Shown piece by piece: positions 42,890-59,860 of a stretch of DNA of 64,000 nt. Below the pieces are notes generated by a model. It was not told where the DNA came from, made no database searches, and saw nothing but the letters and a program-made list of their open reading frames with translations. Location of the stretch: contig JAZDDX010000017.1 in assembly GCA_043809315.1 (NCBI GenBank), positions 1 through 64,000 on the forward strand. Direction: 5' to 3'. Numbering within the stretch: the first letter of the stretch is position 1; each line of letters opens with the position of its first letter. The DNA is from Pseudomonadota bacterium. GTDB lineage: Bacteria > Bdellovibrionota_G > JALEGL01 > DATDPG01. The translations under genes and the position numbers were made by a program.

Positions 42890-42905
42890 TGGCGGAGAGG
42901 GGGGG
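42890..42905 (-). repeat. att core copy 2 (tRNA-Ser 3' end)
   Basis: TGGCGGAGAGGGGGGG; IHF consensus AATCAATGGCTTG at 42956-42968; arm-like GTTACCGGAATGCAACCGAAA at 43024-43044. Confidence 0.85.
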
Positions 42906-43059
42906 AAGCAACGGCCTCGTCCGCAACGCCTCTTTCTAGCAGTGCTTTTCAATCGAATCAATGGCTTGATCCCGTCCGCGTTTCACTCCAAATCACGAGC
43001 CACGACAAAAATGGAGAATCCTCGTTACCGGAATGCAACCGAAATAGGGATGTGGCCTC

Positions 43060-44064
43060 GTGAGGCCCGACATTGCGCGGCCGTTCGAGGGGTTTTCCGA
43101 GCCTCGTTATACGCCCGTTCCCGACGAGTTCTTCGACGACTTGATGGTCGGCCTATCCCTGGCCGAGATCCGGCTTGTTCTCTACATCTCGAGGCGGACG
43201 TTCGGTTTCAAGAAGCGGGCCGACGCCATTTCGTTGAGCCAGATGGAGGGGGGAATCCGGCGGAAGGATGGAACGGTTCTGGATCGGGGGACCGGCCTTT
43301 CGCGTCGGTCGATTCTTCCAGCGCTGAAATCGCTGATCGAAAAGGGGATCGTCGTTCGCGAGGAGCGAAAAAACCCGGAGCACGGCTGGCAGTCTTCGGT
43401 CTACTCTCTGAGGTTCAAGGTCAAAACCGCCGCGCCCCTTGGTGAAAGCTCTTCCTCTAGGGAGGGGGAAAATGCTTCCCATACCCATGAGGAAGCCGTT
43501 TCCCCTCACAACAAGCAGGATTCAACAAACAGTTTGAACAACACCCCCTCCGTCCCCCATGTTCTGACGCGGGAATTTTACGAGGGTCTGGGACGAAAGG
43601 TCTCGCCGCAAAAGATCGAAGCGGGGGAGGGGGAGATTGAATCCCTCCTGCAGGGAGGTTTTTCCGCGGAGGAGATCCGAACGGGGATCGAACACATTGC
43701 CAAGCACTATCCCGACACTCAAACGATCTCCCGTCTCCCGTTCCTGATCGATGAGGCCTTGAGCCGACAGAGCCGAAGGCGTGAAGCGCCGCCTCAGGCG
43801 GAAGCAACCCAAAGGGAGGAGAAAACACGACAGGCCCAGATCGAGATCGATTCCCGGCACTCCGAAGAGGCCCGAACCTGGTTCGAGGGGCAGGTCGTTG
43901 AAGAGCAGGAGCGCCTCCTTGGACTTGCGCCCCAGTTTCTCTCACTTCGATCCACGAAGATCCGCTGGCTCTGGGAGAAGTGGAGGCGTTCGGAACCGGG
44001 GATCTTTTTTCCAACCCCCTTTCCCGCCCGGGAAAGCGGCCTGGAAGAGAGGAAAGGAGCATAA
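43060..44064 (+). CDS. Replication initiator, lambda-O-like N-terminal wHTH
   Basis: YTPVPDEFFD..L...E.R...YI.RRTFGF.K..D.IS.SQ...GTGLSR.S...ALK.L...G. Confidence 0.8.
   Translation: MRPDIARPFEGFSEPRYTPVPDEFFDDLMVGLSLAEIRLVLYISRRTFGFKKRADAISLSQMEGGIRRKDGTVLDRGTGLSRRSILPALKSLIEKGIVVREERKNPEHGWQSSVYSLRFKVKTAAPLGESSSSREGENASHTHEEAVSPHNKQDSTNSLNNTPSVPHVLTREFYEGLGRKVSPQKIEAGEGEIESLLQGGFSAEEIRTGIEHIAKHYPDTQTISRLPFLIDEALSRQSRRREAPPQAEATQREEKTRQAQIEIDSRHSEEARTWFEGQVVEEQERLLGLAPQFLSLRSTKIRWLWEKWRRSEPGIFFPTPFPARESGLEERKGA
43441..43548 (+). other. Putative replication origin (iterons + A-rich tract) inside rep
   Basis: Three G(G/A)(G/T)GAA-N5-TTCC units at a 24-bp period (43441, 43465, 43489), followed by an A/C-rich strand-asymmetric tract. 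Confidence 0.55.
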
Positions 44065-44067
44065 CCG

Positions 44068-45006
44068 ATGGAAACTCTAAGCCGTTTCATCAGTTCAGAA
44101 AGCCTTCCGCCCTCCGCCTTGCGACGCGACCACACCCCCTCGACGAGTAAAAAAATAGATGAGGGGTTGTGGTCCCGTCGGCGGGCTACGGGCTGGGAAA
44201 GTGAAGAGTTAAGTTGGTTGGATGAGAACATCCTGTGGTGTCTGGTTTCAGTGAGGGTGATGACAAGAGATCAGATCAAGAAGCTTTGGTATCCGAAGGG
44301 GACGATTCGGGCAGTGAATTGGAGGCTAAAGAAACTGAAGGATCGAAAGCTGATTGAAGATTTACCGGCAGGATCGATCGCTCAAGCGGTTTGGACGTTT
44401 ACGGCCAGAGGGCTTGGGGCGCTCCAAGAGGTCTTGGCCTGGAAGAGCTTGGTTCTACCGTTTGAACCTCCCATCCCCCGTCGGATCAGGGAGTCGACGA
44501 TCCGGCACCAACTGGCGGTCGCGGAGGTTTTCGTCGGTGCCATTCAAGGGGAAACGGTGAAGGCTCAGATCGACGCTCTGGCGACGATTCGCTGGCAAGA
44601 CGGGTGGAGGCGGCGGCTGGAATACACCTACGGGGCGGAGGAGAGACGCCTCTATCCGGACGTCTATTTCGGCGTTCGAGGATCGGAACGTTGGTATGCC
44701 TATCTGGAGATCGATCGGGGGACGGAGGATGGGACGGTCTTACGGGAAACGTTCGAGAAGTACGGGCAGTTCTTTTGTATCGGGCATCGCGGGGAACAGC
44801 CTCCGACGTTGATCTTCATTTGTCCGGGGGAGTCGCGCCGAGATTTCGTCCGAAAAATCTTTGAATCGGTCTCTCCGACCTACCGATCCAAGCTCCAGTC
44901 GTTTCGAGCCTTTACAATGGCGGAGAGCGTTGGGTTATTGAAGAGGTATATGGCGGTTGGTTCTTTCTTAGCCGACCTGAAGGCCGAATATCCGTCGGGT
45001 GTCTGA
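44068..45006 (+). CDS. Replication-relaxation (Replic_Relax / MOB_C-like) relaxase
   Basis: MTRDQI..LWY, RL.KL....LI, RHQLAVAEV, LYPD.....YLEIDRGTE, KY. Confidence 0.88.
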   Translation: METLSRFISSESLPPSALRRDHTPSTSKKIDEGLWSRRRATGWESEELSWLDENILWCLVSVRVMTRDQIKKLWYPKGTIRAVNWRLKKLKDRKLIEDLPAGSIAQAVWTFTARGLGALQEVLAWKSLVLPFEPPIPRRIRESTIRHQLAVAEVFVGAIQGETVKAQIDALATIRWQDGWRRRLEYTYGAEERRLYPDVYFGVRGSERWYAYLEIDRGTEDGTVLRETFEKYGQFFCIGHRGEQPPTLIFICPGESRRDFVRKIFESVSPTYRSKLQSFRAFTMAESVGLLKRYMAVGSFLADLKAEYPSGV

Positions 45007-46407
45007 TCACGATCGCGCATCTTGTTCTTTGCTTTCGGTGGATCGTTCAAGGTCTTTCAGAATCACGGCCTTCGTTTGCTCATAAAATGAGGTGGGGCTT
45101 ATAAGGCGCGCACCGGCAGAGGCCGCCAGTGCCGTGACCATCATCGGAAAGATCGCGCTGTGCCGGTCGGTCATCTCCAAAATGAGGACGAAAGAGGTCA
45201 GCGGAGCTCGCGTTACGCCGGTAAGCACCGCGATCATCCCAAGGAGCGAAAGAAGGACCGGATTCAAACCCTGCCAGAAAGACGCCATCCATGAACCTAC
45301 CGAAGCCCCCAGAGCGAGGGACGGAGCAAAGATTCCGCCGGCGCCCCCGGCCAAATACGAGGCCGACATCGAAACGAATCTGGCGGCGCTCATCCCCATC
45401 GTGCCTTGCACCTTCCCCGAGAGAATTTCCGAGATGAGTTGGTTGCCCGGACCCAGAGCATGGCGATTGGTGAGCCCCAAGAACACGACGATCAAGGAGC
45501 ACAGAAGCACAACCCGGACCAGAACGGCGTCGGCGGCCCGCTCACGAATCCACCGCTGAGATTTCACCAACAGTTGCCCGAAGAGCGCCCCGATCAAAGC
45601 GCCGACGAATCCAATTACAATGGCCGCCGGCAAATCGGCGAAGGACACGGTCCCGATCTGCGGATAGCCGAGATAAAGGTAGCTGCCGAGGAGCATCTGG
45701 GCCACCAGGCCGGCGATCAGAACCGCCATGAGGACGACGAACCGGATTCGATTGAAATGGTGCTGTGCCAGCTCTTCGATGGCATAGACGACTCCCCCGA
45801 GAGGGGTGTTGAAGGCGGCCGCAATGCCAGCCGCGGCGCCGCCGAGAATCCAGAGATCCAGCGAAATGAGCTTGGTAAAGCGCTGAAAGAACCGGCCCAC
45901 CAGATAGAAAATCGAGGCGCTGACTTGGAGCGTCGGGCCCTCCCTCCCCACCACGCCGCCCCCCATCACACACAACACCGAACTGGCGATTTTCGCGACG
46001 AGCACACGCCAGCCCAGCAGCCGAGGATACGCGACGGCGCGCGCTTTCGGATCCAGTTCGACCGCCGCCATGACCTGGGGAATCCCGCTCCCCGCCGCAT
46101 ACCGCGCCCATCGATAGACGATGAACCAAGACCCCGCGAACGTCACGGGGGTGACAAGAAGGATTGCGTATGGATAATTATGAAAAAGTTGATTCGAAAA
46201 TTTCTCGGCTAGACGAAAGAGGGTTGTATAGCCGACGGCCGCCAGTCCTGCCAAGAGCGCCGCGCCCATGAGGCCGACCTGATGAAGGGTCCCAGGTTGA
46301 CCCAAGGAAGCTCGAAGGCGTCGAAATGCGGGGCCGAACGAGCCCTGAACAAGTTTCGCAATTTTTTTCAACACGGTTTCTTTAAGAGATGAAGGCAAGT
46401 TCCTCAA
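45007..46407 (-). CDS. ClC family Cl-/H+ antiporter (no CBS domain)
   Basis: GSGIP, GREGP, AAFNTPLGG, GGIFAP; start uncertain. Confidence 0.92.
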   Translation of the reverse strand: MRNLPSSLKETVLKKIAKLVQGSFGPAFRRLRASLGQPGTLHQVGLMGAALLAGLAAVGYTTLFRLAEKFSNQLFHNYPYAILLVTPVTFAGSWFIVYRWARYAAGSGIPQVMAAVELDPKARAVAYPRLLGWRVLVAKIASSVLCVMGGGVVGREGPTLQVSASIFYLVGRFFQRFTKLISLDLWILGGAAAGIAAAFNTPLGGVVYAIEELAQHHFNRIRFVVLMAVLIAGLVAQMLLGSYLYLGYPQIGTVSFADLPAAIVIGFVGALIGALFGQLLVKSQRWIRERAADAVLVRVVLLCSLIVVFLGLTNRHALGPGNQLISEILSGKVQGTMGMSAARFVSMSASYLAGGAGGIFAPSLALGASVGSWMASFWQGLNPVLLSLLGMIAVLTGVTRAPLTSFVLILEMTDRHSAIFPMMVTALAASAGARLISPTSFYEQTKAVILKDLERSTESKEQDARS

Positions 46408-48577
46408 GCAACTCCGTCACCTCCTGCGGGTTTTCGAGGTAGTAACGGGCACAGGAGTCCACCGGGTTCCCGACTCGACACCCCCAGGCTTCGGGCGGAA
46501 GAACCGCAAACATGTCCTCGTCGGTTCGGTCGTCGCCGACGCATAGAATGAATTCCGGCGCCTGAGCCTGACGGCCAAGGATATCAGACACCAACGACCC
46601 CTTGTCGATCCCCTGGGGACGAACTTCAATAACCTTGTGCCCCTGGACCACCCGAACGGGAAGGTTGGAAAGGGCACCGTCCAGATACAGTGACAACTCC
46701 AGGGCTTGCCAATCGCCGAACTGCTCGTCCGCCTCCCGGTAATGCCAAGCCAGTCCCAGCTGTTTCCGCTCGATCGACGACCCCGGCACACGGCGGGTGT
46801 AGTCCTCGAGGATCTTTTCAACCGTCGGTATCCAGTCGGCCTTTACCTCACGGTGCTTGCGCCATTCGGCGGAGCCGCTCAATTTCAAAAAGAGGCCATG
46901 CTCGGCGGCCAAGTTCGCGTGGAAGGAAGAAAACCAGAGGTCCATCTCCTCGGTCTTCCTCCCGCTGATTAGATAGAGATGGTTCTTGGGTTCGGACGCC
47001 AGCGTCGAAAGGATGTTGAGCAGGTGTTCCGGCGGACGTGCCTCGGATGGGCGTCTCAAGAAAGGGACCAGGGTTCCGTCGTAATCCAGAAATAAGAAGC
47101 GCTGAGGAGCTCGCTGCCACTGACGGCGCAGCCGTATGAAATCGGTCATCAGGTCAATGGCGGCCCCCTCCGGTCTCCCCTTTTCGGATGTCAGGTCACG
47201 CAAGAACCGTCGTGCCCAGCCCAGGGAGTGAAAGTTTCGAACGTACGTGAAGTTGTGAACCGCGCGGCTGGCCCGTTCGTTGGTCTCCATGGTGAGCGCC
47301 CTTGAGATCGCGTTGGCGGTCTGAACCGCATCCCAGGGGTTCACGAACAACGAGCCCCCCATTGAACTTGCTGCGCCGGCGAACTCGCTCAAGACCAGGA
47401 CACCATGCCGGTCTTTCTGACAGGCCGCGTACTCCAAGGCGACCAGGTTCATCCCGTCTCTTACGGACGTCACAAGCAGTACGTCTGCCCTCTCATAAAG
47501 CGCGCAGAGCTCGGGGAACCCGATCTCGTGCGCGACGTACTGAATCGGCGAATGCTGGGCGTCGCCGAAACGTCCGTTGATCCGTCCCACCAGTTGGTCA
47601 ACCTCGCCCTTGAGCTGTTGATACTCTTTCACGGCGAGACGGGAGGGAATTCCGACCTGAATGAGAACGACTTTTCCCCGCCATTCCGGGTGGGTTTCGA
47701 GAAACACTTCGAACGCCCGCAGTTTCAGAGGCAATCCCTTGCTGTAGTCGATCCGGTCGACCCCCAGCACGATCTTTATGTCGGTGTACTTCTGTGCCAA
47801 CGCCTGACGGTTCGGCTCGATGTCACCGCCTTGAAGCATCTGATGAAATGGAGCGGCGTTGATACCGATCGGATAGCTCCCATATCGAATCTGCCTCCCC
47901 TCGTAACGAATCTGGGTGGGCTGTGATTCGGCTCCTAGGATTCGAAGACAACTGTTTGCAAAATAACGAGCATAATCGTGGGTGTGAAAGCCGATGAGGT
48001 CGCTCCCCATCAGGCCGAGCAAAATCTCCCGCCGGACCGGAAGCAAGCGATAAATCTCCGACGCGGGGAACGGGATGTGAAGGAAGAAGCCGATCTTCAA
48101 TCCGGGGTGTTTGGCCCGTAACAGCGCGGGGAGCAGCATGAGGTGGTAGTCGTGAATCCAAACCGTCGATTGTTCACCGCAGGAATCCAGAACCACCTTG
48201 GCGAAGGTCTCGTTCACCCGTTGGTACTCGTCCCAATACGGAAGGCCGAAATCGACTCTGCCGGGGAGGTAGTGAAAGAGCGGCCAAAGAACGGAGTTGC
48301 AGAATCCATCATAGAAGTGGTCGACCTGGTTCGCCTCGAGAAACACGGGAAGGTATCCAAGCCCCGTTTCCAAGAGAGAGCAGACCTCCCCTTCCTCTAC
48401 CTTGGGAACGATCGTCCCCGGCCAACCGATCCAACGAAACTCCAACTCGCTCTTGACTCCGGCCAGAGCGGAAACCAGTCCCCCGGAACTCGGCTGAGCC
48501 TTCCAGGAGCCTCCCTCGTGGTGGATCTGCACGGGAAGCCGGTTGGAAACGACGATCAGAGAACCGGTCGATTTCAT
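46382..48577 (-). CDS. Bifunctional trehalose-6-phosphate synthase/phosphatase (OtsA-OtsB fusion)
   Basis: VSNRLP, SSGGLV, WIHDYHL, DGMNLV; HAD motifs FLDYDGTL and GDDRTDED. Confidence 0.95.
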   Translation of the reverse strand: MKSTGSLIVVSNRLPVQIHHEGGSWKAQPSSGGLVSALAGVKSELEFRWIGWPGTIVPKVEEGEVCSLLETGLGYLPVFLEANQVDHFYDGFCNSVLWPLFHYLPGRVDFGLPYWDEYQRVNETFAKVVLDSCGEQSTVWIHDYHLMLLPALLRAKHPGLKIGFFLHIPFPASEIYRLLPVRREILLGLMGSDLIGFHTHDYARYFANSCLRILGAESQPTQIRYEGRQIRYGSYPIGINAAPFHQMLQGGDIEPNRQALAQKYTDIKIVLGVDRIDYSKGLPLKLRAFEVFLETHPEWRGKVVLIQVGIPSRLAVKEYQQLKGEVDQLVGRINGRFGDAQHSPIQYVAHEIGFPELCALYERADVLLVTSVRDGMNLVALEYAACQKDRHGVLVLSEFAGAASSMGGSLFVNPWDAVQTANAISRALTMETNERASRAVHNFTYVRNFHSLGWARRFLRDLTSEKGRPEGAAIDLMTDFIRLRRQWQRAPQRFLFLDYDGTLVPFLRRPSEARPPEHLLNILSTLASEPKNHLYLISGRKTEEMDLWFSSFHANLAAEHGLFLKLSGSAEWRKHREVKADWIPTVEKILEDYTRRVPGSSIERKQLGLAWHYREADEQFGDWQALELSLYLDGALSNLPVRVVQGHKVIEVRPQGIDKGSLVSDILGRQAQAPEFILCVGDDRTDEDMFAVLPPEAWGCRVGNPVDSCARYYLENPQEVTELLEELAFIS

Positions 48578-48590
48578 AGGTTTGGACCTT

Positions 48591-50405
48591 CTACGTCCAG
48601 GCGCGGAACTTCGCATCCCGCGCCTCCAAGAGTTCACCGATCGTGATCGCCGCGTGAATCAAACCGACGTGGGTGTAGGCCTGGGGGAAGTTTCCGAGGA
48701 GCGTGCCGGTGCCCGGATCGACATCCTCCGAGAAAAGGCCCAGCGGGTTCGCGTAACCGGTAATCCGATGGAACACCTCGACCGCCTTGTCCAGCTCCCC
48801 CATCATCGCGAGGGCCTCCGCCCACCAGAACGAGCAGATGAGGAAGGCGGACTTGGTCTCTCCGAAATCATCCGGATGCACGTACCGAAGCATGACGCCA
48901 TTTCGGACCAACATCTTTTCGTACTCCCGTACGGTCGAAACAAAGCGCGGATCTTTTGCGTCGATGATTCCGAGGGTGGGTAACAGCAGGAGTGAGGCAT
49001 CCGCAAAATGCCCCTCAAAAGCCTGCGTGAAAAATCCTTTCTCCGCCTGATAGCCACGGCGAAGAATCTCCTCTGCGGTCGTATGGGCCCACGATTCCCA
49101 ACGGTCAGCTTGTTCGACCATCCCCATCCGTCGGGCGAGTTCGGCGCCACGATGCGCTGCCACCCAACAAAGCACTTTCGAGAACGTGTAATGGCGGAGA
49201 CGCGTTCGGAACTCCCAGGGGCCGGTGTCCTCGAGGGGGTACACGTTCATGGCTTGTTCCACGAGGCGTTCCACCAAACGCCGGGACGCCTCGCCGTCTT
49301 CGGAGACCAGGCGCGGGTCCGTCAAGAGCGTCTCTAGACAGAGAATCATCTCCCCCATCAGATCGTTTTGGGCCTGTTGGTACGCCGCGTTTCCGATCCG
49401 GACCGGCTTTGTCCGTCCAAACCCGCTCAGATGATCGAGGTGTTCTTCGGGAAGGTCCCGTTCGCCACCGATACCGTAGACCGCCTGAAGCGGACCGTTC
49501 TCCGCCACGTTCCGTAGAAACCGGACGAAAGCCTCCCCTTCCGCCAGATGACTCAGGCGACGGAGAGCCTCCACCACGAAGGCCGCATCCCGAAGCCAGC
49601 AATAGCGGTAATCCCAGGTTCTCTCGGTGTTCAGGGCTTCGGGAATGCTCGTTGTCGCTGCAGCGATGATCGCCCCGGTATCTCGGTAAGCGTGCAGTTT
49701 GAGGCAGAGCGCCGAACGAAGAACATGTTCGGCGGCAAAAGAGGGGAGGGCGCATGTCTTAGTCCATGTTCGCCACCCGGCGATCGTAAGATTCAAGGCA
49801 TGCTGGGCGCTGGCGATCGAGTCCAGATCGGACTGCCTGCCGTAGCTCAAGACGAAAAACCACGGCTGTTCGACCCTCAGGGGTTGCCGATTGAGGACGT
49901 GTGCCAGAGGGATGTTCGTCCGGAGGTAGATCGGAGCGGATCCTCCGTGCACTTCGATCATGTCCCCCGCCGGAATGAGACCTACCTCGCTCCGACCGTA
50001 ATTCGGTTTCGGGTCGAACTCTACCTGGAGACGCACGGCCCCCTTGATCGGTCGGACCAGCCGACAGATCTCCGCGGGGGTGTCGGACGTCAGGCCTTTC
50101 GGAATCCGCGGGGCGAAATCGAAGATCTCGCACTCGCCGTCATCCGTCGTGAGACGAGTCCGAAGAACGTTGGTGTTTCGAACATACTCCATGGAACAGG
50201 TTGCATCCCGACCGACCGGCGCCAGAGCCCAGGACCCACCTTTGAGAGGGTCGAGAATCGAGGCGAACACCGAAGGGGAGTCGAAACGGGGCATACAAAG
50301 CCACTCGATCCGCGTGTCGGGCGCCACGAGCGCGAGGCATTGCCCGTTCCCGATCGCCCCGTGATCGAGACGTGGAGCCAAGGCGATTTCCGTCTTGTCC
50401 GGCAT
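48591..50405 (-). CDS. Glycoside hydrolase family 15 (probable trehalase)
   Basis: PRFDSPSVF, AAATTSIPE, WDYRYCWLRD, WEFR, LGNFPQAYTH. Confidence 0.93.
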   Translation of the reverse strand: MPDKTEIALAPRLDHGAIGNGQCLALVAPDTRIEWLCMPRFDSPSVFASILDPLKGGSWALAPVGRDATCSMEYVRNTNVLRTRLTTDDGECEIFDFAPRIPKGLTSDTPAEICRLVRPIKGAVRLQVEFDPKPNYGRSEVGLIPAGDMIEVHGGSAPIYLRTNIPLAHVLNRQPLRVEQPWFFVLSYGRQSDLDSIASAQHALNLTIAGWRTWTKTCALPSFAAEHVLRSALCLKLHAYRDTGAIIAAATTSIPEALNTERTWDYRYCWLRDAAFVVEALRRLSHLAEGEAFVRFLRNVAENGPLQAVYGIGGERDLPEEHLDHLSGFGRTKPVRIGNAAYQQAQNDLMGEMILCLETLLTDPRLVSEDGEASRRLVERLVEQAMNVYPLEDTGPWEFRTRLRHYTFSKVLCWVAAHRGAELARRMGMVEQADRWESWAHTTAEEILRRGYQAEKGFFTQAFEGHFADASLLLLPTLGIIDAKDPRFVSTVREYEKMLVRNGVMLRYVHPDDFGETKSAFLICSFWWAEALAMMGELDKAVEVFHRITGYANPLGLFSEDVDPGTGTLLGNFPQAYTHVGLIHAAITIGELLEARDAKFRAWT

Positions 50406-50475
50406 GGAATTTAATTCGGGCGTACCGTATCATAAGATTGACAGTTTGGGTAAAACGAATTATCTGGAAAGCGCC

Positions 50476-51724: not shown

Positions 51725-51870
51725 CGCGGAAATGGGGGTCAGCGTGTATTCTCCTATCCCGGAAGGTTTCCAGAATTCCGGGTTCCTTCTCTTCCTTGAT
51801 CATTTCCAGGGAAGAGAGCGCTGACCCCCAATTTCTGTAGTAGTTCTTGCTCGTGTGGGTAGAAAAGATC

Positions 51871-53139
51871 ATGTCTTGGTCAAGGGGAATCGAAATCGCT
51901 GCCACGGTTCTTTTTGGATTTGCGATCGTCCATACGTTTTTATGCGGCTACTTCCGTCACTGGTCCCATCGCTTTCCTGAGGGGTCGGTCAAAGAAAGCT
52001 TCCTTCATCTGCTCGGGGAAGTGGAAGTGGTCTTCGGGTTCTGGGCGGGCGTGTTGTTTTTGATGATGGTGATCTGGGTTGGGTCCGATCGAGCCATTCA
52101 ATACGTTGAAAGCCGCGATTTTACGGAACCTCTGTTTGTGTTTGCGATTATGGTTGTTGCGGCGACCCGTCCCATCGTAGGTGCCGCCGGCAAAATTATC
52201 GTCCTTTCGGCAAGGTTACTTCCGCTTCATCGCGAAGTCGGAATTTACCTATGCTGTTTGGCCATTGGGCCGCTCCTTGGCAGCTTCATTACCGAACCTG
52301 CGGCCATGACGGTTGTCGCTCTCGTTTTAAGGGAACGGTATCTGCGCCGGAACGTTTCCGTTCGTTTCAAATATCTGACGTTGGCCGCACTTTTCGTGAA
52401 TGTGTCGATCGGTGGTGCGTTGACCCCCTACGCCGCTCCTCCCATTCTCATGGTGGCGGGGAAATGGAACTGGGACGTAGCGTTCATGTTGACGACGTTT
52501 GGCTGGAGAGTGGCGATTGCCACGTTGGTCAATGCTGCCATCGGAGCCGCTCTGCTATCTTCCGAATTGAAAGCTCTTCCTATGCGGGAACGTGTTCAGA
52601 ACATGCATGCTCCGTTGTGGCTGACGGGCGCGCACCTGACGTTCTTGATTGTTATCGTCGTTACCGCACATCATCCGGCAGTCTTCCTTGGTGCGTTTCT
52701 CTTTTTCTTGGGAATTACGACCATTACGGCTGGGTATCAGGACAGCCTAAAGATTCGCGAGGGCCTATTGGTTTCCCTGTTCTTGTCTGGCCTTGTCGTG
52801 CTCGGGGGGCTTCAATCGTGGTGGCTGGAGCCTCTGCTGCACAGACTGGACGCTTTTCCACTCTTCGTTGGCACGACGTTTTTGACGGCGATCACCGATA
52901 ACGCCGCCCTGACTTACCTTGGGTCCCAGGTGGAGGGAATGACCGAACATCTCAAGTATGCGCTCGTAGCGGGAGCCATCGCCGGGGGGGGACTTACGGT
53001 CATCGCGAACGCTCCGAACCCCGCAGGGTACTCAATTCTGCAGGACACATTTGGTCCGGATGGCATAAGGCCGCTGAAGCTCTTCCTTTTTGCTCTCCCG
53101 CTGACCCTGATCACAATGACGTGCCTGTGGATACTCTGA
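51871..53139 (+). CDS. Putative Na+/H+ antiporter (DUF1504-type, IT superfamily)
   Basis: HLLGEVEVVFG, FTEPLFVF, GSFITEPAAMT, TDNAALTYL, TVIANAPNPAG. Confidence 0.85.
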   Translation: MSWSRGIEIAATVLFGFAIVHTFLCGYFRHWSHRFPEGSVKESFLHLLGEVEVVFGFWAGVLFLMMVIWVGSDRAIQYVESRDFTEPLFVFAIMVVAATRPIVGAAGKIIVLSARLLPLHREVGIYLCCLAIGPLLGSFITEPAAMTVVALVLRERYLRRNVSVRFKYLTLAALFVNVSIGGALTPYAAPPILMVAGKWNWDVAFMLTTFGWRVAIATLVNAAIGAALLSSELKALPMRERVQNMHAPLWLTGAHLTFLIVIVVTAHHPAVFLGAFLFFLGITTITAGYQDSLKIREGLLVSLFLSGLVVLGGLQSWWLEPLLHRLDAFPLFVGTTFLTAITDNAALTYLGSQVEGMTEHLKYALVAGAIAGGGLTVIANAPNPAGYSILQDTFGPDGIRPLKLFLFALPLTLITMTCLWIL

Positions 53140-53289: not shown

Positions 53290-54990
53290 TCAGTCCGATA
53301 TCCGGGCACGGATACGCGACGCATGTGTCTGGATGACACCAGCGCTGGAACCGTGGCGGTCCATGATCCGAGTGGTTAACTGGACGGCCGCCTCCAGTTC
53401 CGCAGGAACCACTTCCGTGGCCCCCGCGGCGATCAGATCCGCAAGATCCCCCAAGTACTGCGATCGGACCAGGATCGGAAGCGCCGGGTAACGGCCGCGG
53501 GCGAACCGAACGGCGCGCTCCGCTGCTCGGGGATCGTTGATGGTCAGAACCAACTCGTGTGCGCGCCCGGCACCAAGATGTTCCAGGATCTCGGGCGCGG
53601 TGATGTCGCCGAAAAACGCGGGTTCCCCCGACTCCGTCGCGCGCCGCACGCTCTCCGGGTTCAGATCCACGATCACGTAATCGATTTCACAGGACTTCAG
53701 GGATTGTGCCAACTCCTGCCCTGCGACCCCGTACCCGGCAATGATGACATGACCCTGGAGAGGAAGAAGCTTCTGTGTGTCGTCCGCCGGTGTCCGAACG
53801 CCGAGCAGGCGCGTGAGCGAACGCATGCGACCGGCCCCAGCGGCGATACCCGGGCCCAAGACCAGGAGAAACGGTGTCAGGACCATCGAGAGAATGATGG
53901 CGGCCATCAAATGGGCTTGCAGAAGTTCGGGGATAAGATCCGTCCCCCGCGCCGCGTGCAGGAGGACAAATGCGAATTCCCCGACCTGGGCCAGAGCCGC
54001 CCCGGTCAGAACGGAGACACGCAGCGGGAAGCGAAGGAGTGCCCCCACCGCGACCGTCACAAGAAACTTGCCGCCGACGATCGCCGCCAGAAGTGCCGCC
54101 ACAAAACCAGCCTCCCGGGTGAGGCCGCCGACGTCCAGGAGCATTCCGATGGAGACAAAGAAGAGGCTGGTGAACACCTCGCGGAAGGGAATCACGTCGG
54201 CCAGAGCCTGATGGCGATACGGCGTCCCCGACACCACCAGGCCGGCCAGAAAGGCGCCCAGCGCCGGGGAAACGCCGGCGTTGGCAACCAGCCACACGAT
54301 CCCCCCGCAGACCACGAGCACGGCCAGCACGAACAGATCCCGCTGCCGCGTCCCCGAAACCCAGTGAAGCACTCGGGGCACCAGAAAGCGGGCACCTACG
54401 AACGTGACGGCAACCAGGGCCACGGCTTTGCCGATGGCGAGCCAAGAGACCACGAGGGACGTGGCGTCGGCCTCGCCCGCCAGCAGGGGCAAGACAAGGA
54501 TCATCGGAATCACCGCCAGATCCTGGAAGATCAGAATCCCCAGCGTGAATTGGCCGTGGGGCGCATCCACCTCGCCCCGTCGTTGCAGGCCGCGCAGCAC
54601 GATCGCCGTGCTGGAGAGAGCCAGGAGAAACCCGAGGAAGATGGCGGAGCGCACGGGGACACCCAGCCACCGCGCCACCGCGAACGCCAGCGTCGAGGTC
54701 GCCGCCACTTGAAGGAATCCCCCCGCCAGAATCGCCCGCCACAGGCGATGCATGCGGTCCACGGAGAGTTCCAGTCCGATTCCGAACAGAAGGAGGTTGA
54801 TGCCGATCTCGGCCAGAAGATCGACTTCCGTCGCATCCGACACGATCCCCAGGCCGTGCGGCCCGACGAGGCCACCGGCCACGATAAACGCCGCGATCGG
54901 GGGAATCCGCAGGCGCTGGAGCAGCGCGACCACGACGACCGCGATGGCCAGGATCAGAAGAAGACTCTGCAGGAGGTGAAGGCCCGGCAT
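53290..54990 (-). CDS. CPA2 (Kef-type) cation/H+ antiporter with TrkA-N/RCK domain
   Basis: LSSTAIV, ILIFQD, LGAFLAG, QVGEF; IIAGYGVAG. Confidence 0.92.
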   Translation of the reverse strand: MPGLHLLQSLLLILAIAVVVVALLQRLRIPPIAAFIVAGGLVGPHGLGIVSDATEVDLLAEIGINLLLFGIGLELSVDRMHRLWRAILAGGFLQVAATSTLAFAVARWLGVPVRSAIFLGFLLALSSTAIVLRGLQRRGEVDAPHGQFTLGILIFQDLAVIPMILVLPLLAGEADATSLVVSWLAIGKAVALVAVTFVGARFLVPRVLHWVSGTRQRDLFVLAVLVVCGGIVWLVANAGVSPALGAFLAGLVVSGTPYRHQALADVIPFREVFTSLFFVSIGMLLDVGGLTREAGFVAALLAAIVGGKFLVTVAVGALLRFPLRVSVLTGAALAQVGEFAFVLLHAARGTDLIPELLQAHLMAAIILSMVLTPFLLVLGPGIAAGAGRMRSLTRLLGVRTPADDTQKLLPLQGHVIIAGYGVAGQELAQSLKSCEIDYVIVDLNPESVRRATESGEPAFFGDITAPEILEHLGAGRAHELVLTINDPRAAERAVRFARGRYPALPILVRSQYLGDLADLIAAGATEVVPAELEAAVQLTTRIMDRHGSSAGVIQTHASRIRARISD

Positions 54991-55042: not shown

Positions 55043-55564
55043 TCAGTCAACGCGTCGATTCTTACGGACGCGAAACTGCAGGACCACGCGGAGGCGCCAC
55101 AACAACCGGACGGTGACATAGCCGATCACGGACGCCGCAACGGCCAGAACCAGACTGCCCAGCAGCAGAGGCTGCCAGATCGAGCTCAACCGGCCGGTCA
55201 ACCATTCCACGGACATCTCGAACACAAGGTTGTTGCGAACACGCGTTCCAAGGATCCAGGACCCCAGCCGGTATGCGCCGTAGAAGATCGGCGGCATCGT
55301 GACCGGGTTGGTCAACCAGACCAGGGCCACCGAGATGGGCAGGTTGACGCGAAACCATACCGCACAGGCGGCGGCCGGAATCATCTGGAAGGGCATCGGG
55401 ATCATGGCCCAGAACAATCCGACCGCGACCCCCCCCGACGCCGATTGGCGATTGAAGTGCCAGATGTTTGGGTCGTGAAGAAGGGTGCCGAGAAACTGGA
55501 GACGCTTGTGTGTGCGGACCTTATGATGGTCCGGCACCCAACGCTCGATGAGCTTCTTAGGCAC
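55043..55564 (-). CDS. DUF2062 family membrane protein
   Basis: LHDPNIWHFNR, GLFWAMIPMPFQ, NLPIS..LVWLTNP.T. Confidence 0.85.
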   Translation of the reverse strand: MPKKLIERWVPDHHKVRTHKRLQFLGTLLHDPNIWHFNRQSASGGVAVGLFWAMIPMPFQMIPAAACAVWFRVNLPISVALVWLTNPVTMPPIFYGAYRLGSWILGTRVRNNLVFEMSVEWLTGRLSSIWQPLLLGSLVLAVAASVIGYVTVRLLWRLRVVLQFRVRKNRRVD

Positions 55565-55631
55565 GGTGCTTGAGATTCTAACACGGCGTTGCCCAAGATG
55601 AGCCGATTACCTCCGGCTTGACGCAAGCGGA

Positions 55632-55850: not shown

Positions 55851-55858
55851 GCGGGACG

Positions 55859-56212
55859 CTATCCGCGCATTGCCCGAATTTGGGCGAGGACGCCTCGTTT
55901 GCGAGGTCTCTTTCTCAGTCGAACCTGGGTCTCTTCCGCCGCCTGGACGATGGAGTCCACCCATTCCTCACCAAACATGATCTTGAGCTGCTCGATGACC
56001 GATTTTCGCTGAAAGGTGGAGACGGATACACCCTCCATGGTGGCGGCTCGACGGATCAGATCAGCGATAGGTTTGTCGTTGTAGCGAGTAATTGCCACGA
56101 GTTCAGGGCCCTTCTTGGTCCCCTCTTTCCTCTCTTGGTTCACCATCCGCTCGAGCACTTCGGGCATGGCCTTTTCAGAAGGGATTCGGTTTGTTCTACG
56201 TCGCCTAGGCAT
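55859..56212 (-). CDS. Putative ribbon-helix-helix (DUF1778-like) DNA-binding protein
   Basis: ATG 56212 with AAGGAG SD; LIRRAA.MEG.SVS.F.RKS. Confidence 0.55.
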   Translation of the reverse strand: MPRRRRTNRIPSEKAMPEVLERMVNQERKEGTKKGPELVAITRYNDKPIADLIRRAATMEGVSVSTFQRKSVIEQLKIMFGEEWVDSIVQAAEETQVRLRKRPRKRGVLAQIRAMRG

Positions 56213-56621
56213 GGTCTTTTCTCCTTTTGGAGGGCGGATCACCGAAGACAAGATCGGTCACGATCAGCCAATAGAGAAAGGCTCTTCCCGAAGCAAATTG
56301 AAGCTCTTCCATTCGTTCATAAAAGGCGTCAGCAAGCGTCGGTTCAAGCCGCACGTAAAGAGAATAGATCGGACGTTCATCGTGCCAGGGGAGGGTCTCT
56401 TTCTTGGGTGTCTTCAGCTGCTTGGGCTTTCGCTGTGCACCTCGCTGCAGGAGATCTTTCGTGATGAGATGCCGCAGATAGTCAGACGTCGTTCGTAGCG
56501 ATAGTTCGCCCCTTCGTTCGTGGATCCCATCCGCCAGAGTGGGTTCGATGCGCGTGTAGAGCGTGAGGGTCCGGTCCTCCCCGGCCCAGGGGAGATTGTC
56601 TTCTCGGGGACCTCGTTCCAC
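56205..56621 (-). CDS. Protein with an internal tandem duplication (double RHH-like)
   Basis: NLPW....TLYTRIEPTLADG.....YLRHLITKDL / TLPW....SLYVRLEPTLADA.....FLYWLIVTDL. Confidence 0.6.
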   Translation of the reverse strand: MERGPREDNLPWAGEDRTLTLYTRIEPTLADGIHERRGELSLRTTSDYLRHLITKDLLQRGAQRKPKQLKTPKKETLPWHDERPIYSLYVRLEPTLADAFYERMEELQFASGRAFLYWLIVTDLVFGDPPSKRRKDHA

Positions 56622-56777
56622 ATTGACATATGAATCACAAAGCGGGCGATTTGTCTCTGAAATCCCCGAAAATTCTCAAGTAGGTCGAGCCAGACACAGT
56701 CGACTGTCGGCAGAAACCCATTGAAAACATGCATGAAATCCAAAAAATATCTTATTGCAAACGACTCAAAGACAATA

Positions 56778-56819
56778 CAAATGAGTTATATTGACAAATG
56801 ACTCATACGTAGTCATAAG
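56778..56819 (+). promoter_or_regulatory. xis-int promoter with operator-like repeats
   Basis: TTGACA(56791)-17-CATAAG, overlapped by CAAATGA(G/C)T direct repeats and an ATGACT..AGTCAT palindrome. Confidence 0.55.
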
Positions 56820-56866
56820 GGGGTTGTGGTCGGCCTATGCCGAGTCGTAACGAGAAGGAGGAAGCG

Positions 56867-57109
56867 ATGAACATGAGAGAAGACGTCGTGCTGGCGACAA
56901 GGGCACCTGTACACAACCCTTCGGACTGTCTGATGACCGTCCCCGAGGTGGCGGCGTATCTCCGATACAGCCTCGGATATACGCGGAACCTCGTCTGGAG
57001 GAACGAGCTTCCCGTCATTCGGCTTTCCACAGGCGCAGTACGATGCCGGAAACAGGATCTCGAACGGTGGATCGCCGAGAGGAGTTATGCCGCATGCTCC
57101 ACGCATTGA
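56867..57109 (+). CDS. Excisionase-like HTH_17 protein
   Basis: LMTVPEVAAYL..S...R..V....LP.IRL..G.VR....DL..WI. Confidence 0.88.
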   Translation: MNMREDVVLATRAPVHNPSDCLMTVPEVAAYLRYSLGYTRNLVWRNELPVIRLSTGAVRCRKQDLERWIAERSYAACSTH

Positions 57110-58317
57110 AACTGTTGCCCTCCAAAAAGGAACGGTACGTTCGGATCCGAAACTGTCCAGGGATCTCCCGCCTCGAAAAATGGGACGCTCGAAAACAGAG
57201 ATGGATCGACCCTCGGACCGACTCTTCTTCGCGGGCGAAGGTGTTTCGTGCCTACCGGCGGATTCAGCAACTTGGGAAGAGTCTGCTTCAGAAGAGACAC
57301 TTCCGGACGATCGATGACGCCCGCCGATGGCGGATGGAGCTGAATCCCGAGCCGGGGAAGGGAAGGGCGGCGCAAATCACGCTCCGCGAGGTGATCGGAG
57401 AGTGGCGGGAGTGGTCCAAGCCCCCGCGTCTTCGGAAGACATCTTGGCTTCAGTACGCAAAGGACATCGGGCATCTGGAGCCCTTATGGAATGCGCCGAT
57501 CGAGGCTCTCACGGCCCGGGACATCGATCTTTGGCTGGCCCATCTCAAAGATCCCTCCTATCCGAAGCAAAGAACCCGCGTTTCCTTTGCGCGTGAGGTG
57601 GGGACACTCCAGACGATTTGCAAGTGGTACCGCCAGTATCGGAACGAAAAATTTCAGCACCCGATTTTGCCGCGCCACAAACAGGATTCTCATTTTCGTG
57701 AAGATCCGCCCTCGGGTCAGGAAGTTCTGACGGAGAAACAGGCGGAAGAGTTTCTCTTGTTGATGGTCGGCCGCCACGCGGATGCATACGGCCGAACGGC
57801 AGCTCTTCAACTCTTTGCGGGGCTTCGGATCGGGGAGGCATGTGGTCTCAAATGGGACCGCGTCGATCTGGAGAACCGTACGCTGATGATCCGCAGGTCG
57901 TGCACGTGGCCCCAGCCGGCCATGAGGCCGGAGATGCAGGAGCAGATCAAGACCGCCGCTAGCGCGCGGGACATCCCCATCGTGGACCGACTCTTTGAGC
58001 TTCTCGTGAAATGGAAAGCCGAAGACGGGGAGATCGAACTTGTCTGCCATCGAAACGGTCGTCTGATCCGTCGAAACTCGGTGGCGTCCGCGTATGCAAA
58101 AGTGTTCCGGATGATGGGCCTTCGCATGAAAAGCGTGACGCACAGTCTTCGACGCACCTTTGCGACCCTTCATGCCGAGCAGACACACGACCTGGTTTCT
58201 ACTCAGACCCTTCTGGGGCACACCGATATCCAGACGACGCAGATTTACGCCAAAGTGACCGATGCGGCGGTGCGGAGATCGATGCCGAATTTCTCGTTTG
58301 GGACGAAAAAAGAATGA
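57094..58317 (+). CDS. int: Tyrosine integrase
   Basis: GLRIGE (R), IKT (K), HSLRR (HxxR), LLGH, TQIYA (Y). Confidence 0.95.
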   Translation: MLHALKLLPSKKERYVRIRNCPGISRLEKWDARKQRWIDPRTDSSSRAKVFRAYRRIQQLGKSLLQKRHFRTIDDARRWRMELNPEPGKGRAAQITLREVIGEWREWSKPPRLRKTSWLQYAKDIGHLEPLWNAPIEALTARDIDLWLAHLKDPSYPKQRTRVSFAREVGTLQTICKWYRQYRNEKFQHPILPRHKQDSHFREDPPSGQEVLTEKQAEEFLLLMVGRHADAYGRTAALQLFAGLRIGEACGLKWDRVDLENRTLMIRRSCTWPQPAMRPEMQEQIKTAASARDIPIVDRLFELLVKWKAEDGEIELVCHRNGRLIRRNSVASAYAKVFRMMGLRMKSVTHSLRRTFATLHAEQTHDLVSTQTLLGHTDIQTTQIYAKVTDAAVRRSMPNFSFGTKKE

Positions 58318-58386
58318 AACCTGTAACCGGATGCAACCGAAACGGAGGTGCCGAGATGTTTCGCCCTAAGAATTCCGAGGACTTAA

Positions 58387-59686
58387 GGCTCTACCTCAAA
58401 TAACGGGGCAAGGCGCGGATCGGGAGTAAATTCCCGATCTTTAAACCTTCGGTCAGAAAGGAGATGCGCCTATGCCCCTGGAGGAGTCTATCGTTCATTT
58501 GCCGGGATTCAAGGTGGAACGGATTGAGGGAATGGATCCGGTAGAGGTGGAGGTTCGGTATACCGAACCGGCCCGTTGTCCGGAATGTGGCGATCGGCAC
58601 GTTCGGATCAAAGCTCAATATTTTCGCAGAGTTCGACACGAATCGATCGGATCGAGAGCCTGTTACTTACGAATCCGAGGGAGAAAGTATTTCTGCCGAA
58701 GCTGCCGGAGGTATTTTCACGAGAGATACCCGGGAATCCGTCTGTACCGGCGCTCGAGTGAGGGATTCCGGCTCGAGGTGTTCCAGAAGCATCGGGACGG
58801 GATCAGCCAACGAATCCTTTCGAAGCAGAACCAAATCGGCCATGCGACGATCGAGCGCTGGGCACATGATTACTGGGGGAGGAAGGCGGCGGAGATCCGC
58901 AACAATCCGGCTCCTCGAGTCTTAGGGATCGACGAGCATTTCTTCTCCCGAAAGCACGGGTATGCCTCCACGTTTTGCGATCTCAGGCGACAACGGATTC
59001 ACGACGTGGTGCTCGGAAGATCGGAAGCGTCGCTGAAGCGGTACTTGGACCGGCTTCCAGGGAAAGAAAAGACCCAGGTCGTGGTCATGGATTTATCCGA
59101 GATCTACCGAGCGATCGTTCGCAAATACTTTCCCAACGCCAAGATCGTAGCCGATCGGTTTCATGTGATCCGGTGGGTGAACCATCAATTTCTAAAGGCC
59201 TGGCAGCAGCTGGATCCATCGGGCCGAAAGAACCGAGGACTCTTATCGCTCATGCGACGACACGAGGAGAATCTCTCGGAGGGGCAGAAGATCACGCTCC
59301 GGGAATACCTGAAAGCGCAGGGAGTGTTGGAGGCGATCTATGACTTTAAGCAGGAGCTTTGCCGATTGCTTCGCATCAAGCATCAGACCCAGTGGGAGTG
59401 CCAGAAATGGATCCCCAAGCTCCTGGAGATGATCGAGCAACTCAAGGCCGCGCCGATCGAGGCGCTGTCTTCCCTCGGGAAGACACTCCATAACTGGAGA
59501 GAAGAAATCGTGCGGATGTGGCGATTTACCAAGACCAATTCCATCACGGAAGGATTCCACACCAAGATGGAGATGATCTCCCGACGTGCCTTCGGTTTCC
59601 GGAACTTTGAAAACTATCGTTTGAGAGTCCGAGCGTTATGTGGTTAGTCAGAAAATACTGCCTGCCCCGGTATTCGGGGAAGAGCC
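58387..59686 (+). mobile_element. ISL3-family insertion sequence (1300 bp) with 8-bp target duplication
   Basis: IRs GGCTCTACCTCAAATAACGGGGCA / GGCTCTTCCCCGAATACCGGGGCA (20/24 match); TSD GGACTTAA at 58379-58386 and 59687-59694. Confidence 0.95.
58472..59647 (+). CDS. ISL3 family transposase
   Basis: CPECG zinc ribbon, LGIDE, VMDL, DRFHV, TNSITEG, AFGFRNFENY. Confidence 0.97.
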   Translation: MPLEESIVHLPGFKVERIEGMDPVEVEVRYTEPARCPECGDRHVRIKAQYFRRVRHESIGSRACYLRIRGRKYFCRSCRRYFHERYPGIRLYRRSSEGFRLEVFQKHRDGISQRILSKQNQIGHATIERWAHDYWGRKAAEIRNNPAPRVLGIDEHFFSRKHGYASTFCDLRRQRIHDVVLGRSEASLKRYLDRLPGKEKTQVVVMDLSEIYRAIVRKYFPNAKIVADRFHVIRWVNHQFLKAWQQLDPSGRKNRGLLSLMRRHEENLSEGQKITLREYLKAQGVLEAIYDFKQELCRLLRIKHQTQWECQKWIPKLLEMIEQLKAAPIEALSSLGKTLHNWREEIVRMWRFTKTNSITEGFHTKMEMISRRAFGFRNFENYRLRVRALCG

Positions 59687-59702
59687 GGACTTAAAAATAA
59701 AA

Positions 59703-59860
59703 TGGCGGAGAGGGGGGGTATCGAAAATCCCCCCCTCAACGCCTCGGCATCGTTACCAAAACCAACGACATCAAACCGTTAGCTATCGAAACAATACCGC
59801 CCATTACCGTGAATTTCCGCCCGTAACGGCCATCTTGTTCCGCAGATGTTCCGCAAGAAG
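59703..59860 (-). repeat. att core copy 3 plus arm region of island C
   Basis: TGGCGGAGAGGGGGGG at 59703-59718 with a degenerate T-loop (TTTTCGATAC on the minus strand); TGTTCCGCA x2 at 59836-59855. Confidence 0.85.

Follow-up and report, generated by a model that had tools for sequence, protein, structure and literature searches.

What kind of mobile DNA occupies positions 42890-59718 of the 64,000-nucleotide stretch analysed here (the window, contig C17:1-64000), and is it of a kind already described? The stretch comes from a 2.42-Mb assembly in 44 contigs, 96% complete (G000), of a Pseudomonadota bacterium. The segment, called island B below, carries at its left end a gene for a lambda O-like replication initiator (Rep) followed by a gene of the Replic_Relax family, at its right end genes for an excisionase and a tyrosine integrase, and salt- and osmotic-stress genes in the interior. 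With moderate confidence it is read as a canonical integrative and mobilizable element (IME), a stress-cargo genomic island, because it has its own integration and excision genes, a relaxase-family gene, no type IV secretion system (T4SS), an initiator, cargo, and a history of tandem accretion. It is a real element that was probably mobilizable in trans in the past. It is of a known kind, not a new class, and its combination of modules is one among many.

The features that carry this reading are listed here, with the strand where there is one; G001, a relative named in two of the entries, belongs to another genus of the family.

42890..42905: attL core, an exact 16-bp copy of the 3' end of tRNA-Ser(GCT).
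42906..43059: left arm, with an integration host factor (IHF) match at 42956-42968 and a 12-mer at 43033-43044; 77% nucleotide identity over 42890-43119 to G001:C147:5148-5377 (BLAST).
43060..44064, plus strand: Rep, 334 aa; PF04492 at 32.5 bits (cut-off 28.7), phrog_678 'replication initiation O-like' at 67 bits.
44068..45006, plus strand: Replic_Relax, 312 aa; PF13814 at 67.7 bits (cut-off 25.3) over residues 59-237; starts 4 bp after rep.
56837..57109, plus strand: excisionase (xis), an AlpA-type HTH_17 protein; PF12728 at 43.4 bits, TIGR01764 at 33.2 bits, phrog_66.
57043..58317, plus strand: tyrosine integrase; PF00589 at 78.1 bits; reads towards attR and the tRNA.
58331..58342: second copy of the 12-mer, ATGCAACCGAAA, kept in G001 bar the final base.
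58387..59686, plus strand: ISL3-family insertion sequence (IS), 1,300 bp; transposase at 58472-59647, PF01610 at 201.2 bits; 23-bp imperfect terminal inverted repeats.
59703..59718: attR core of island B, which is also the attL core of island C; exact repeat.

The boundaries are given by a 16-mer, TGGCGGAGAGGGGGGG, that is present exactly at 42890-42905 and again at 59703-59718, with 16,797 bp between the two cores (42906-59702) and no further copy of the core within that interval. On contig C17 the 16-mer occurs four times (32986, 42890, 59703 and 66840), always in the same orientation, and the copy at 66840 is the sole one belonging to a gene, where it forms the 3' end of tRNA-Ser(GCT) (C17:66840-66933, minus strand), 2.8 kb past the end of the window. 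No tRNA gene was found inside the window by ARAGORN or Rfam, and the T-arm-like hairpin after 59718 is no gene but a remnant. The repeats had been noticed in the preliminary description of this DNA, made from the letters alone; they match the tRNA 3' end and are not a product of chance, and the att-bounded integrative element at tRNA-Ser that was proposed there is upheld by the repeats, the target tRNA and the integrase together. Three att-bounded islands (A, B and C) lie head to tail downstream of the one tRNA. Island B is the middle one and the only one of the three with an integrase; islands A (33002-42889) and C (59719-66839) share its bounding 16-mer and have no integrase, and thus fit the tandem accretion of cis-mobilizable elements (CIMEs) with an IME.

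The recombination genes themselves appear sound. All six catalytic residues of the integrase (R262, K303, H367, R370, H393 and Y402, the RKHRHY set) are invariant in an alignment of six integrases, in keeping with the intact catalytic integrase of the preliminary description, and xis lies just upstream of the integrase gene and overlaps it. In the arms, ATGCAACCGAAA is found at 43033-43044, 127 bp inside attL, and at 58331-58342, 14 bp past the integrase stop, so the shared 12-mer reported near both ends is present as claimed. There are only three copies in the 2.42-Mb genome, the third at C43:17607 in an unrelated intergenic region, and the arms have no other BLAST matches in their own genome. 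In G001 the left arm has the full ATGCAACCGAAA, and the integrase-side arm keeps its first 11 bases with the last one changed. The two copies in the element are candidate arm-type integrase sites, and the left arm as a whole (42906-43059) is a candidate for either an arm-type integrase site or the promoter and origin region of rep. An IHF site had been claimed as well. The consensus WATCAANNNNTTR does have its single match in the window at 42956-42968, in the left arm; 0.73 matches are expected per window, 49 of 100 shuffles have at least one, and the match is unconserved in G001, where there are two mismatches in the ATCAA part.

At the other end of the element, Rep carries the N-terminal Phage_rep_O DNA-binding domain, as recognised by both PF04492 and phrog_678, and scores 17.4 bits with TIGR01610, below the cut-off of 45.5. 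In the structural model (predicted local distance difference test, pLDDT, 65) a winged helix at residues 22-117 is followed by a disordered linker (120-161) and a helical C-terminal domain. The C-terminal domain matched no Pfam family, and the model found nothing in Foldseek at E<=0.001, the best fold match being a DnaD model at a non-significant E of 0.034. Four full-length homologues of Rep are 50-77% identical, and more than 100 further proteins, mainly from Chloroflexota, Armatimonadota and similar metagenome-assembled genomes (MAGs), match only the N-terminal 110 or so residues. With lambda O, Rep shares the N-terminal Phage_rep_O winged helix and the order of flexible linker and C-terminal domain that follows. 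It differs in that its match is barely above the Pfam cut-off and below that of TIGR01610, its C-terminal domain fits no family, and the element has neither an iteron array in or near rep nor a gene for a P- or DnaC-type loader. The preliminary description had pointed to the iterons that lambda O binds inside its own gene, but a repeat search of 42880-45100 revealed no iteron array in or around rep, just two-copy families of 10-26 nt, a search that degenerate iterons could escape. No helicase-loader family is present among the long open reading frames (ORFs) of the element, and the gene after rep is that for Replic_Relax.

The arrangement of an O-like rep directly followed by Replic_Relax is as first described, with the PF04492 gene and the PF13814 gene 4 bp apart, and the two make up one apparent operon, as judged from their spacing. 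The Replic_Relax ORF also withstood the proposed check against PF13814, which it matches well above the family's cut-off (67.7 against 25.3 bits). Its model is good (pLDDT 87, predicted template modelling score 0.82) and shows an N-terminal winged helix of the MarR/PadR type (Z 10-12) ahead of an alpha/beta C-terminal domain, for which whole-chain Foldseek neighbours were weak (VC1899 (1xmx), FokI and BsoBI, TM 0.25-0.32); a wide structural search was filled by matches to the winged helix. Six residues (H147, P197, D198, E214, D216 and R257) are near-invariant across 41 Replic_Relax sequences, and the C-terminal domain is putatively of the PD-(D/E)xK type. MOB_C relaxases have reportedly been demonstrated biochemically with TraX of pAD1. 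In the available part of their paper, Steczkiewicz et al. (PMC3424549) place PF13814 in the PD-(D/E)XK superfamily, and the family is named there for replication as well as relaxation; according to the portion at hand of Coluzzi et al. (PMC5357655), CONJscan reads PF13814 relaxases as MobC. From its Pfam family, and from gene context in its relatives, the protein is a putative MOB_C-type relaxase. Close relatives are few: a word-index search gave one besides the query, none of 56 pattern matches in genome contigs was confirmed, and of 41 genomes searched only its own gave a match (0 of the 40 relatives). A rare Replic_Relax clade in an apparent operon with an O-like Rep is useful for asking whether PF13814 proteins serve replication, transfer or both.

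Genes for transfer and for phage particles were sought with Pfam across 19 long ORFs of the element, and with PHROGs on eight ORFs only, those of the backbone and those without assignment. No T4SS or coupling-protein family was found by Pfam in the long ORFs of 42890-59718, and no terS, capsid or packaging-redirection (Sid/Psu-like) family either by Pfam in the 19 or by PHROGs in the eight. The lack of capsid and T4SS genes stated in the preliminary description thus holds for the long ORFs scanned with Pfam.

The company that the two left-end genes keep elsewhere was examined among the matches listed for the Rep alignment, which yielded 160 loci (80 genome contigs and 80 metagenome contigs), 77 of them at least 10 kb long; the full-length Rep homologues (P0004-P0007) lie outside these 160. 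With a hidden Markov model (HMM) built from 41 sequences (E<=0.001), a Replic_Relax gene was found in 18 of the 77 long loci among the matches listed, in phyla other than that of the host. Pfam confirmed PF13814 in all 14 loci submitted to it, and four (L043, L046, L082 and L107) stand on the HMM. Five loci were viewed whole, L031 in part, and the other twelve over 6 kb to either side of Replic_Relax. A coupling-protein gene (PF10412 and/or PF12696) lies near Replic_Relax in seven of the 18 (L014, L025, L030, L048, L055, L070 and L082), and in five of the 18 (L025, L030, L055, L070 and L082) it is directly upstream and co-oriented. Other neighbours include ParA/ParB, ArdC, primases, a VirB4-like ATPase (L089), serine recombinases (L070, L098) and a tyrosine recombinase (L113). 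The backbone had been thought unique, or at least undescribed, a view that does not survive the joint presence of a Rep_O-type gene and Replic_Relax in these 18 of 77 listed long loci.

These modules from Chloroflexota, Armatimonadota and other MAGs (L014, L025, L030, L055, L070, L082 and others) resemble island B in the N-terminal domain of Rep (42-58% identical over about residues 9-120), in a PF13814 gene within 10 kb, and in recombinases, ParA/B or ArdC nearby. They differ in that Replic_Relax comes after the coupling-protein gene and is separated by 0.7 kb or more from Rep, which it may precede or follow. An AAA_22 ATPase gene stands before Rep in four of the first six loci (L014, L055, L070 and L030), and the Rep proteins have other C-terminal domains; island B has neither feature. 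In two further loci (L113 4007-5812 and L089 7419-9209) Replic_Relax is the C-terminal half of a protein of about 600 aa with an unassigned N-terminal extension of about 300 aa, and these proteins adjoin genes for ParA or ParB and for Rep_O.

How do these properties compare with described systems? Island B has a site-specific recombinase and flanking att repeats at a defined target, no complete T4SS, and, for the relaxase gene and/or origin of transfer (oriT) expected of an IME, a PF13814 gene at 67.7 bits with no oriT located. PF13814 lies above its curated cut-off, as expected of MOB_C, and a VirD4-type coupling-protein partner is missing from the element. IMEs that encode phage-type replisome organisers, as well as CIME-IME tandem accretion, are described in the available text of Guedon et al. 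2017 (PMC5704250), and in that text every feature on which the IME reading of island B draws can be found. The likeness extends to att-flanked site-specific integration, an excisionase, a PF13814 gene, the lack of a T4SS, cargo, a replication initiator of phage or plasmid type as an optional extra for the excised form, and tandem accretion with decayed CIME-like neighbours. The same portion of the review states that no canonical IME was then known from Proteobacteria. A 2026 genomic-island preprint (10.64898/2026.01.13.699239) likewise deals, in its accessible part, with integration in tandem at a single att site. The closest described set, as far as the available part of its source goes (PMC5357655), is streptococcal IME_Class_8, which has a MobC/PF13814 relaxase; in that class the integrase is of the serine type and a VirD4 coupling protein is encoded by the element itself, whereas island B uses a tyrosine integrase, encodes no coupling protein and pairs its relaxase-family gene, in an apparent operon, with the gene for an O-like Rep. 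With MobC/PF13814 IMEs (PMC5357655) and IMEs with phage-type replisome organisers (PMC5704250) both in print, at least in the portions of these papers referred to here, the view of the backbone as undescribed is not supported.

Phage satellites of the PICI (phage-inducible chromosomal island) and P4-like kinds share with island B an integrase, an AlpA/HTH_17-type protein, an initiator, and the form of a 10-20 kb island at a tRNA. They differ in that the long ORFs of island B include no terS, capsid, packaging-redirection or phage-interference genes and include a relaxase-family gene instead. The placement between satellites and IMEs given in the preliminary description is not supported: integrase, excisionase, an own relaxase and no T4SS make a canonical IME. 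Its self-replicating element mobilised in trans fares better in the matter of transfer, since with no T4SS genes transfer by outside help is the natural reading.

Tycheposons, the Prochlorococcus islands of Hackl et al., are tRNA-adjacent tandem islands with Ser-TGA among their targets, according to the available part of the preprint (bioRxiv 10.1101/2020.12.28.424599). In architecture alone they are built like island B, with adaptive cargo enclosed between a replication module and, at the opposite end, a tyrosine recombinase that targets tRNA genes; nutrient or stress cargo, such as the phosphate-uptake set of island A, and island growth beside a tRNA by repeated integration are likewise common to both. 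As described in that part of the preprint, tycheposons differ in having no relaxase, in replication genes that are primases, helicases or polymerases, and in an inward-facing integrase; that of island B reads towards attR and the tRNA.

A working scheme for the IME can be put together from its parts. The tyrosine integrase would join the element to the 3' end of tRNA-Ser(GCT) by recombination at its 16-bp core, the repeats and the enzyme both being present, and the HTH_17 excisionase would direct excision. On the excised circle the O-like initiator may start theta-type replication, and Replic_Relax may nick an oriT and deliver the DNA to a helper conjugative element's coupling protein and T4SS. 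Two small proteins encoded divergently from xis and the integrase gene could act as excision regulators or relaxosome accessories. The cargo, which is the genome's only set of genes for trehalose, ion and pH homeostasis, would serve that homeostasis in the host. Repeated integration at the same tRNA builds the three-island tandem, whose outer units are CIME-like and have lost their recombination genes.

The present state of this copy is another matter. The ISL3 element, of which the genome has one copy, is inserted between the integrase gene and attR at a distance of 8 bp from the attR core and is flanked by an 8-bp target duplication, GGACTTAA, at 58379-58386 and 59687-59694. Homologous DNA in G001 runs from the 3' end of the integrase gene straight through the arm into the tRNA without an IS and gives the pre-insertion state. 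The insertion has pushed the integrase-side arm 1.3 kb from the attR core. Lambda-type tyrosine integrases need arm sites close to the core; with the arm now displaced by ISL3, this copy is probably poorly excisable or immobile, by analogy with them. The element had been called apparently complete, a description that no longer fits now that a 1.3-kb IS 8 bp from the core is seen to split arm from core. As a natural IS insertion beside an att core it can be compared with an IS-free relative. The insertion, the 10-kb cargo and the middle place in a three-island array had all been overlooked.

Several points weigh against an IME and should be set beside the explanations that compete with it. No VirB4-type ATPase of a helper T4SS was found in the 96%-complete assembly (PF03135 0, PF12846 0), the element is without a coupling protein, unlike described MobC IMEs, and no oriT or iteron-type origin was found in 42880-45100. 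The relaxase role is drawn from family membership and from the context of relatives, and among those relatives not one of the 18 loci has Replic_Relax directly after Rep; on the present data, the tight pairing is peculiar to island B. The protein is rare and divergent, with 51 of 1.84 billion cluster representatives at E<=0.001, eight at 1e-10 and four at 1e-30 (query included), and tblastn against 72,556 plasmid records gave no match. In PHROGs its weak matches bear the label 'replication initiation by nicking'. A second island of G001 (G001:C17) has Fic, a Rep 53% identical, xis and int, and is without Replic_Relax, from which it follows that the backbone works, or persists, without the relaxase. 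The cargo is no nearer to that of relatives than core genes are (OtsAB 50-63%, GH15 64-75% and the antiporter 65%, against 61% for DnaX), and the GC content of the island, 57.8%, is near the genome's 59.7%. The public runs with sequence were contig-only, three in number and of low depth, and are uninformative on circles, empty sites and copy number.

The main rival takes up many of these same points. It holds that island B carries its cargo as a replicating but non-conjugative island, similar to a tycheposon or a PICI, whose functional core would be the integrase and Rep. Replic_Relax would be a replication or partition nuclease, or a DNA-binding regulator, working with Rep, and the island would spread by vesicles, transduction or transformation. 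Besides the match in architecture (the available part of bioRxiv 10.1101/2020.12.28.424599), the operon-like 4-bp spacing of rep and Replic_Relax, the G001:C17 island that has Rep, xis and int without Replic_Relax, the missing T4SS ATPase, the nicking label in PHROGs and a family name that covers both replication and relaxation (PMC3424549, as available) can all be counted for it. Its difficulty lies in the conjugation context of relatives, in which Replic_Relax is directly behind a coupling-protein gene in five of 18 loci and near one in seven, in the Replic_Relax-like gene that precedes a coupling-protein gene on C4 of this genome, and in an integrase that faces the tRNA and not inward. On balance this explanation is considered unlikely, without being far-fetched.

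A different proposal is that the island is a fixed relic, immobile and by now ordinary chromosome that holds the lineage's only osmoprotection genes, with a decaying backbone. The ISL3 element 8 bp from the attR core, single-copy cargo at orthologue-level divergence from relatives, a GC content near that of the genome and two flanking islands already without integrase all agree with it. However, Rep, Replic_Relax, xis and the integrase are full-length open frames with the integrase's catalytic residues kept; the IS is single-copy with target duplication and flanks intact, which points to a recent insertion; and an integrase fragment 90% identical in another genus speaks for recent movement of this type of element. 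The proposal moreover concerns the present state and is compatible with an IME origin, and as a substitute for that origin it is distinctly improbable. Least credible, and very improbable indeed, is a composite in which the Rep-Replic_Relax end and the xis-int end derive from separate integrations or rearrangements that trapped native chromosomal genes between them. The cargo does resemble family-native genes, with the order of LysR and, divergent from it, GH15-OtsAB found also in G001, and tandem arrays do show repeated events at the site; but no extra att core lies inside 42906-59702, and in G001 the left arm with the start of Rep and the integrase-side arm each stand beside a tRNA-Ser core, both with the shared motif (12 of 12 bases on the left, the first 11 on the integrase side), as expected of the two ends of one element. 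The canonical IME therefore remains the favoured reading, at the moderate confidence given above.

The interior of island B, about 10 kb between Rep-Replic_Relax and the two small divergent genes, consists of the following.

45007..46407, minus strand: CLC chloride channel; PF00654 at 265.9 bits.
46382..48637, minus strand: fused trehalose-6-phosphate synthase/phosphatase OtsA-OtsB; PF00982 at 538.8 and PF02358 at 205.6 bits.
48591..50405, minus strand: GH15 glycoside hydrolase with trehalase-like N-terminal domain; PF00723 at 184.7 and PF19291 at 85 bits.
50395..51405, plus strand: LysR-type regulator, divergent from GH15-otsAB; PF00126 and PF03466.
51847..53139, plus strand: Na+/H+ antiporter (Na_H_antiport_3); PF07399 at 565 bits.
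53290..54990, minus strand: Kef-type cation/H+ exchanger with TrkA_N; PF00999 at 201.4 and PF02254 at 71.5 bits.
55043..55564, minus strand: DUF2062 membrane protein; PF09835 at 167.1 bits.
55859..56251, minus strand: small protein 1, ribbon-helix-helix (RHH)-like, 130 aa (the start codon may lie further in); RelB and DUF6290 matches below cut-off; atlas neighbours RHH_9, RHH_1 and NikA-like.
56205..56621, minus strand: small protein 2, RHH-like, 138 aa; atlas neighbours ParG, RHH_3 and CopG antitoxin.

All cargo genes are single-copy in the genome, so that the island holds its only trehalose and Na+/H+ homeostasis set, and salt and osmotic adaptation in this lineage may be carried by mobile DNA. 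These genes were not imported recently from afar, since their identities to relatives are at the level of DnaX and the island's GC content is close to that of the genome; by sequence comparison the cargo is native to this family, and the order LysR, GH15-OtsAB recurs on G001:C13. The integrase end looks, by the same kind of comparison, to have been shared between genera more recently than the cargo. As for the two RHH-like genes that the preliminary description placed divergent from xis-int, both ORFs are there, are divergent and have a coding-type pattern (GC1>GC2<GC3), and the translation of the 138-aa ORF shows a strand-helix-helix unit duplicated in tandem. The weak part of the claim is their identity: no HMM reached its cut-off for either, and the RHH-like label, drawn from atlas neighbours, is offered as a lead only.

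The two flanking islands are as follows.

33002..42889: island A, att-bounded and without integrase; phosphate porin, Pst ABC transporter, PhoU, PhoR/PhoB-like pair and DUF4172-Fic.
59719..66839 (window part to 64000): island C, without integrase; ICMT-type methyltransferase, a 672-aa unknown, a hybrid histidine kinase and a receiver-like protein.

The phosphate set of island A is complete-looking (porin O/P, PstS, PstC/A, two PstB-like ATPases, PhoU and the PhoR/PhoB-like pair), cargo of the nutrient type reported for tycheposons.

Relatives of the backbone were found in the same genome and across the order, and the proposed search for empty sites and relatives at tRNA-Ser was rewarded in G001, whose DnaX is 61% identical and whose tRNA-Ser cores adjoin both a related integrase fragment and the left arm. 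The integrase fragment is 90% identical over residues 299-424 and lies 93 bp from the tRNA-Ser(GCT) of G001; at another contig end stand the left arm (77% nucleotide identity) and the first 20 residues of Rep, 90% identical. The interior of this element is unassembled, and PF13814 was not found in the G001 assembly (94% complete). In G003 the tRNA-Ser(GCT) has a single core copy and was considered as an empty site, yet the DNA beyond the core shows no synteny with what flanks the array on the left (tblastx gave no match), and for this reason G003 does not define attB. A complete genome from a sister genus (G004:C1:629326-638072, L183) has at the same tRNA-Ser(GCT) an island of 8.7 kb that includes defence genes and encodes a large serine recombinase, an ApeA/HEPN protein and an HTH_17-helicase fusion. 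The tRNA-Ser(GCT) site is thus a hotspot used by unrelated recombinases.

Integrase relatives are present in seven of 15 genomes of the order (E<=1e-20) and adjoin a tRNA or tmRNA gene in seven of the eight loci scanned. Within the genome of island B itself, a fragment of Rep, 72% identical, lies at the end of contig C33, and a 69%-identical integrase paralogue stands at the tRNA-Ser(TGA) on C7 beside an arsenic-resistance island. This tRNA-Ser(TGA) array (C7:23263-38310; L219, L191) has cores at 23263, 29003 and 38219 and a degenerate core at 27693, and its proximal unit combines the integrase paralogue with a MerR-type regulator, ACR3/SBF, and ArsP fused to a low-molecular-weight phosphatase. 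On the same contig (C7:7419-18505, L013) tRNA-Ser(GGA) heads two integrase-less islands bounded by TGGCGGAGAGGGCGGG. One of them, which encodes PilZ, a small protein and a hybrid histidine kinase, is paralogous to island C (82% identity over 443 nt at the left end), and the other carries an AbiEi/AbiEii pair. Tandem accretion is accordingly seen at the three tRNA-Ser genes examined (GCT, GGA and TGA), with up to eight att-bounded units, of which only two have an integrase of this family.

Three more Replic_Relax-like genes were found in the genome (on C23, C24 and C4), each within about 5 kb of a tyrosine integrase gene. That on C24 is divergent from int-xis. The one on C4 belongs to a compact IME-like unit (C4:2031-9104, L221) in which int and an HTH_17 gene are divergent from a gene for a 329-aa Replic_Relax-like protein (HMM only, E 3.5e-8), followed by a coupling protein, the one PF10412 match in the assembly, and then an AbiEi-like protein, an HTH protein and HipA.

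A wider picture may be sketched from these arrays, whose cassettes hold genes for phosphate uptake, osmoprotection, arsenic resistance, signalling and abortive infection. It supposes that this small-genome lineage keeps much of its flexible gene pool in tRNA-Ser arrays of att-flanked cassettes, tycheposon-like outside the marine picoplankton and shuffled by one small family of tRNA-Ser integrases with an O-like Rep, and that an optional Replic_Relax couples replication of the circle to conjugative hitch-hiking, possibly as one nick-and-replicate machine. It is a speculative picture, and its full form is regarded as doubtful.

Some smaller observations concern the surroundings. The Replic_Relax paralogue on C23 lies in an island at C23:1-9100 (L012) with AbiEi/AbiEii, DUF6933, a bAvd-like gene with a reverse transcriptase, and a tyrosine integrase; the bAvd-like gene and the reverse transcriptase form a diversity-generating retroelement, and the island adjoins ferritin and Lon genes. 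One of the public runs contained 0.52 of the sampled words. Run contigs cover 42000-60500 at a depth of 0-5, one of them (42607-42940) bridging the junction between islands A and B; none of the att cores showed a joint at this depth, and two joints listed from another run were disregarded, as their shorter side measured just 21-24 nt. Near the right end of island A, ATTCTCCGCA recurs several times at 42760-42870, in direct and inverted form, and this stretch upstream of the Fic gene (minus strand, 41650-42771) has the look of an operator array; the contigs of two public runs are common over about 40 bp close to this array (42742-42784) and then diverge. In island C, a long, perfect-looking palindrome at 59997-60068 scores 26.8 bits on both strands with an Rfam microRNA family whose gathering threshold is 77, and is most likely a bidirectional terminator.

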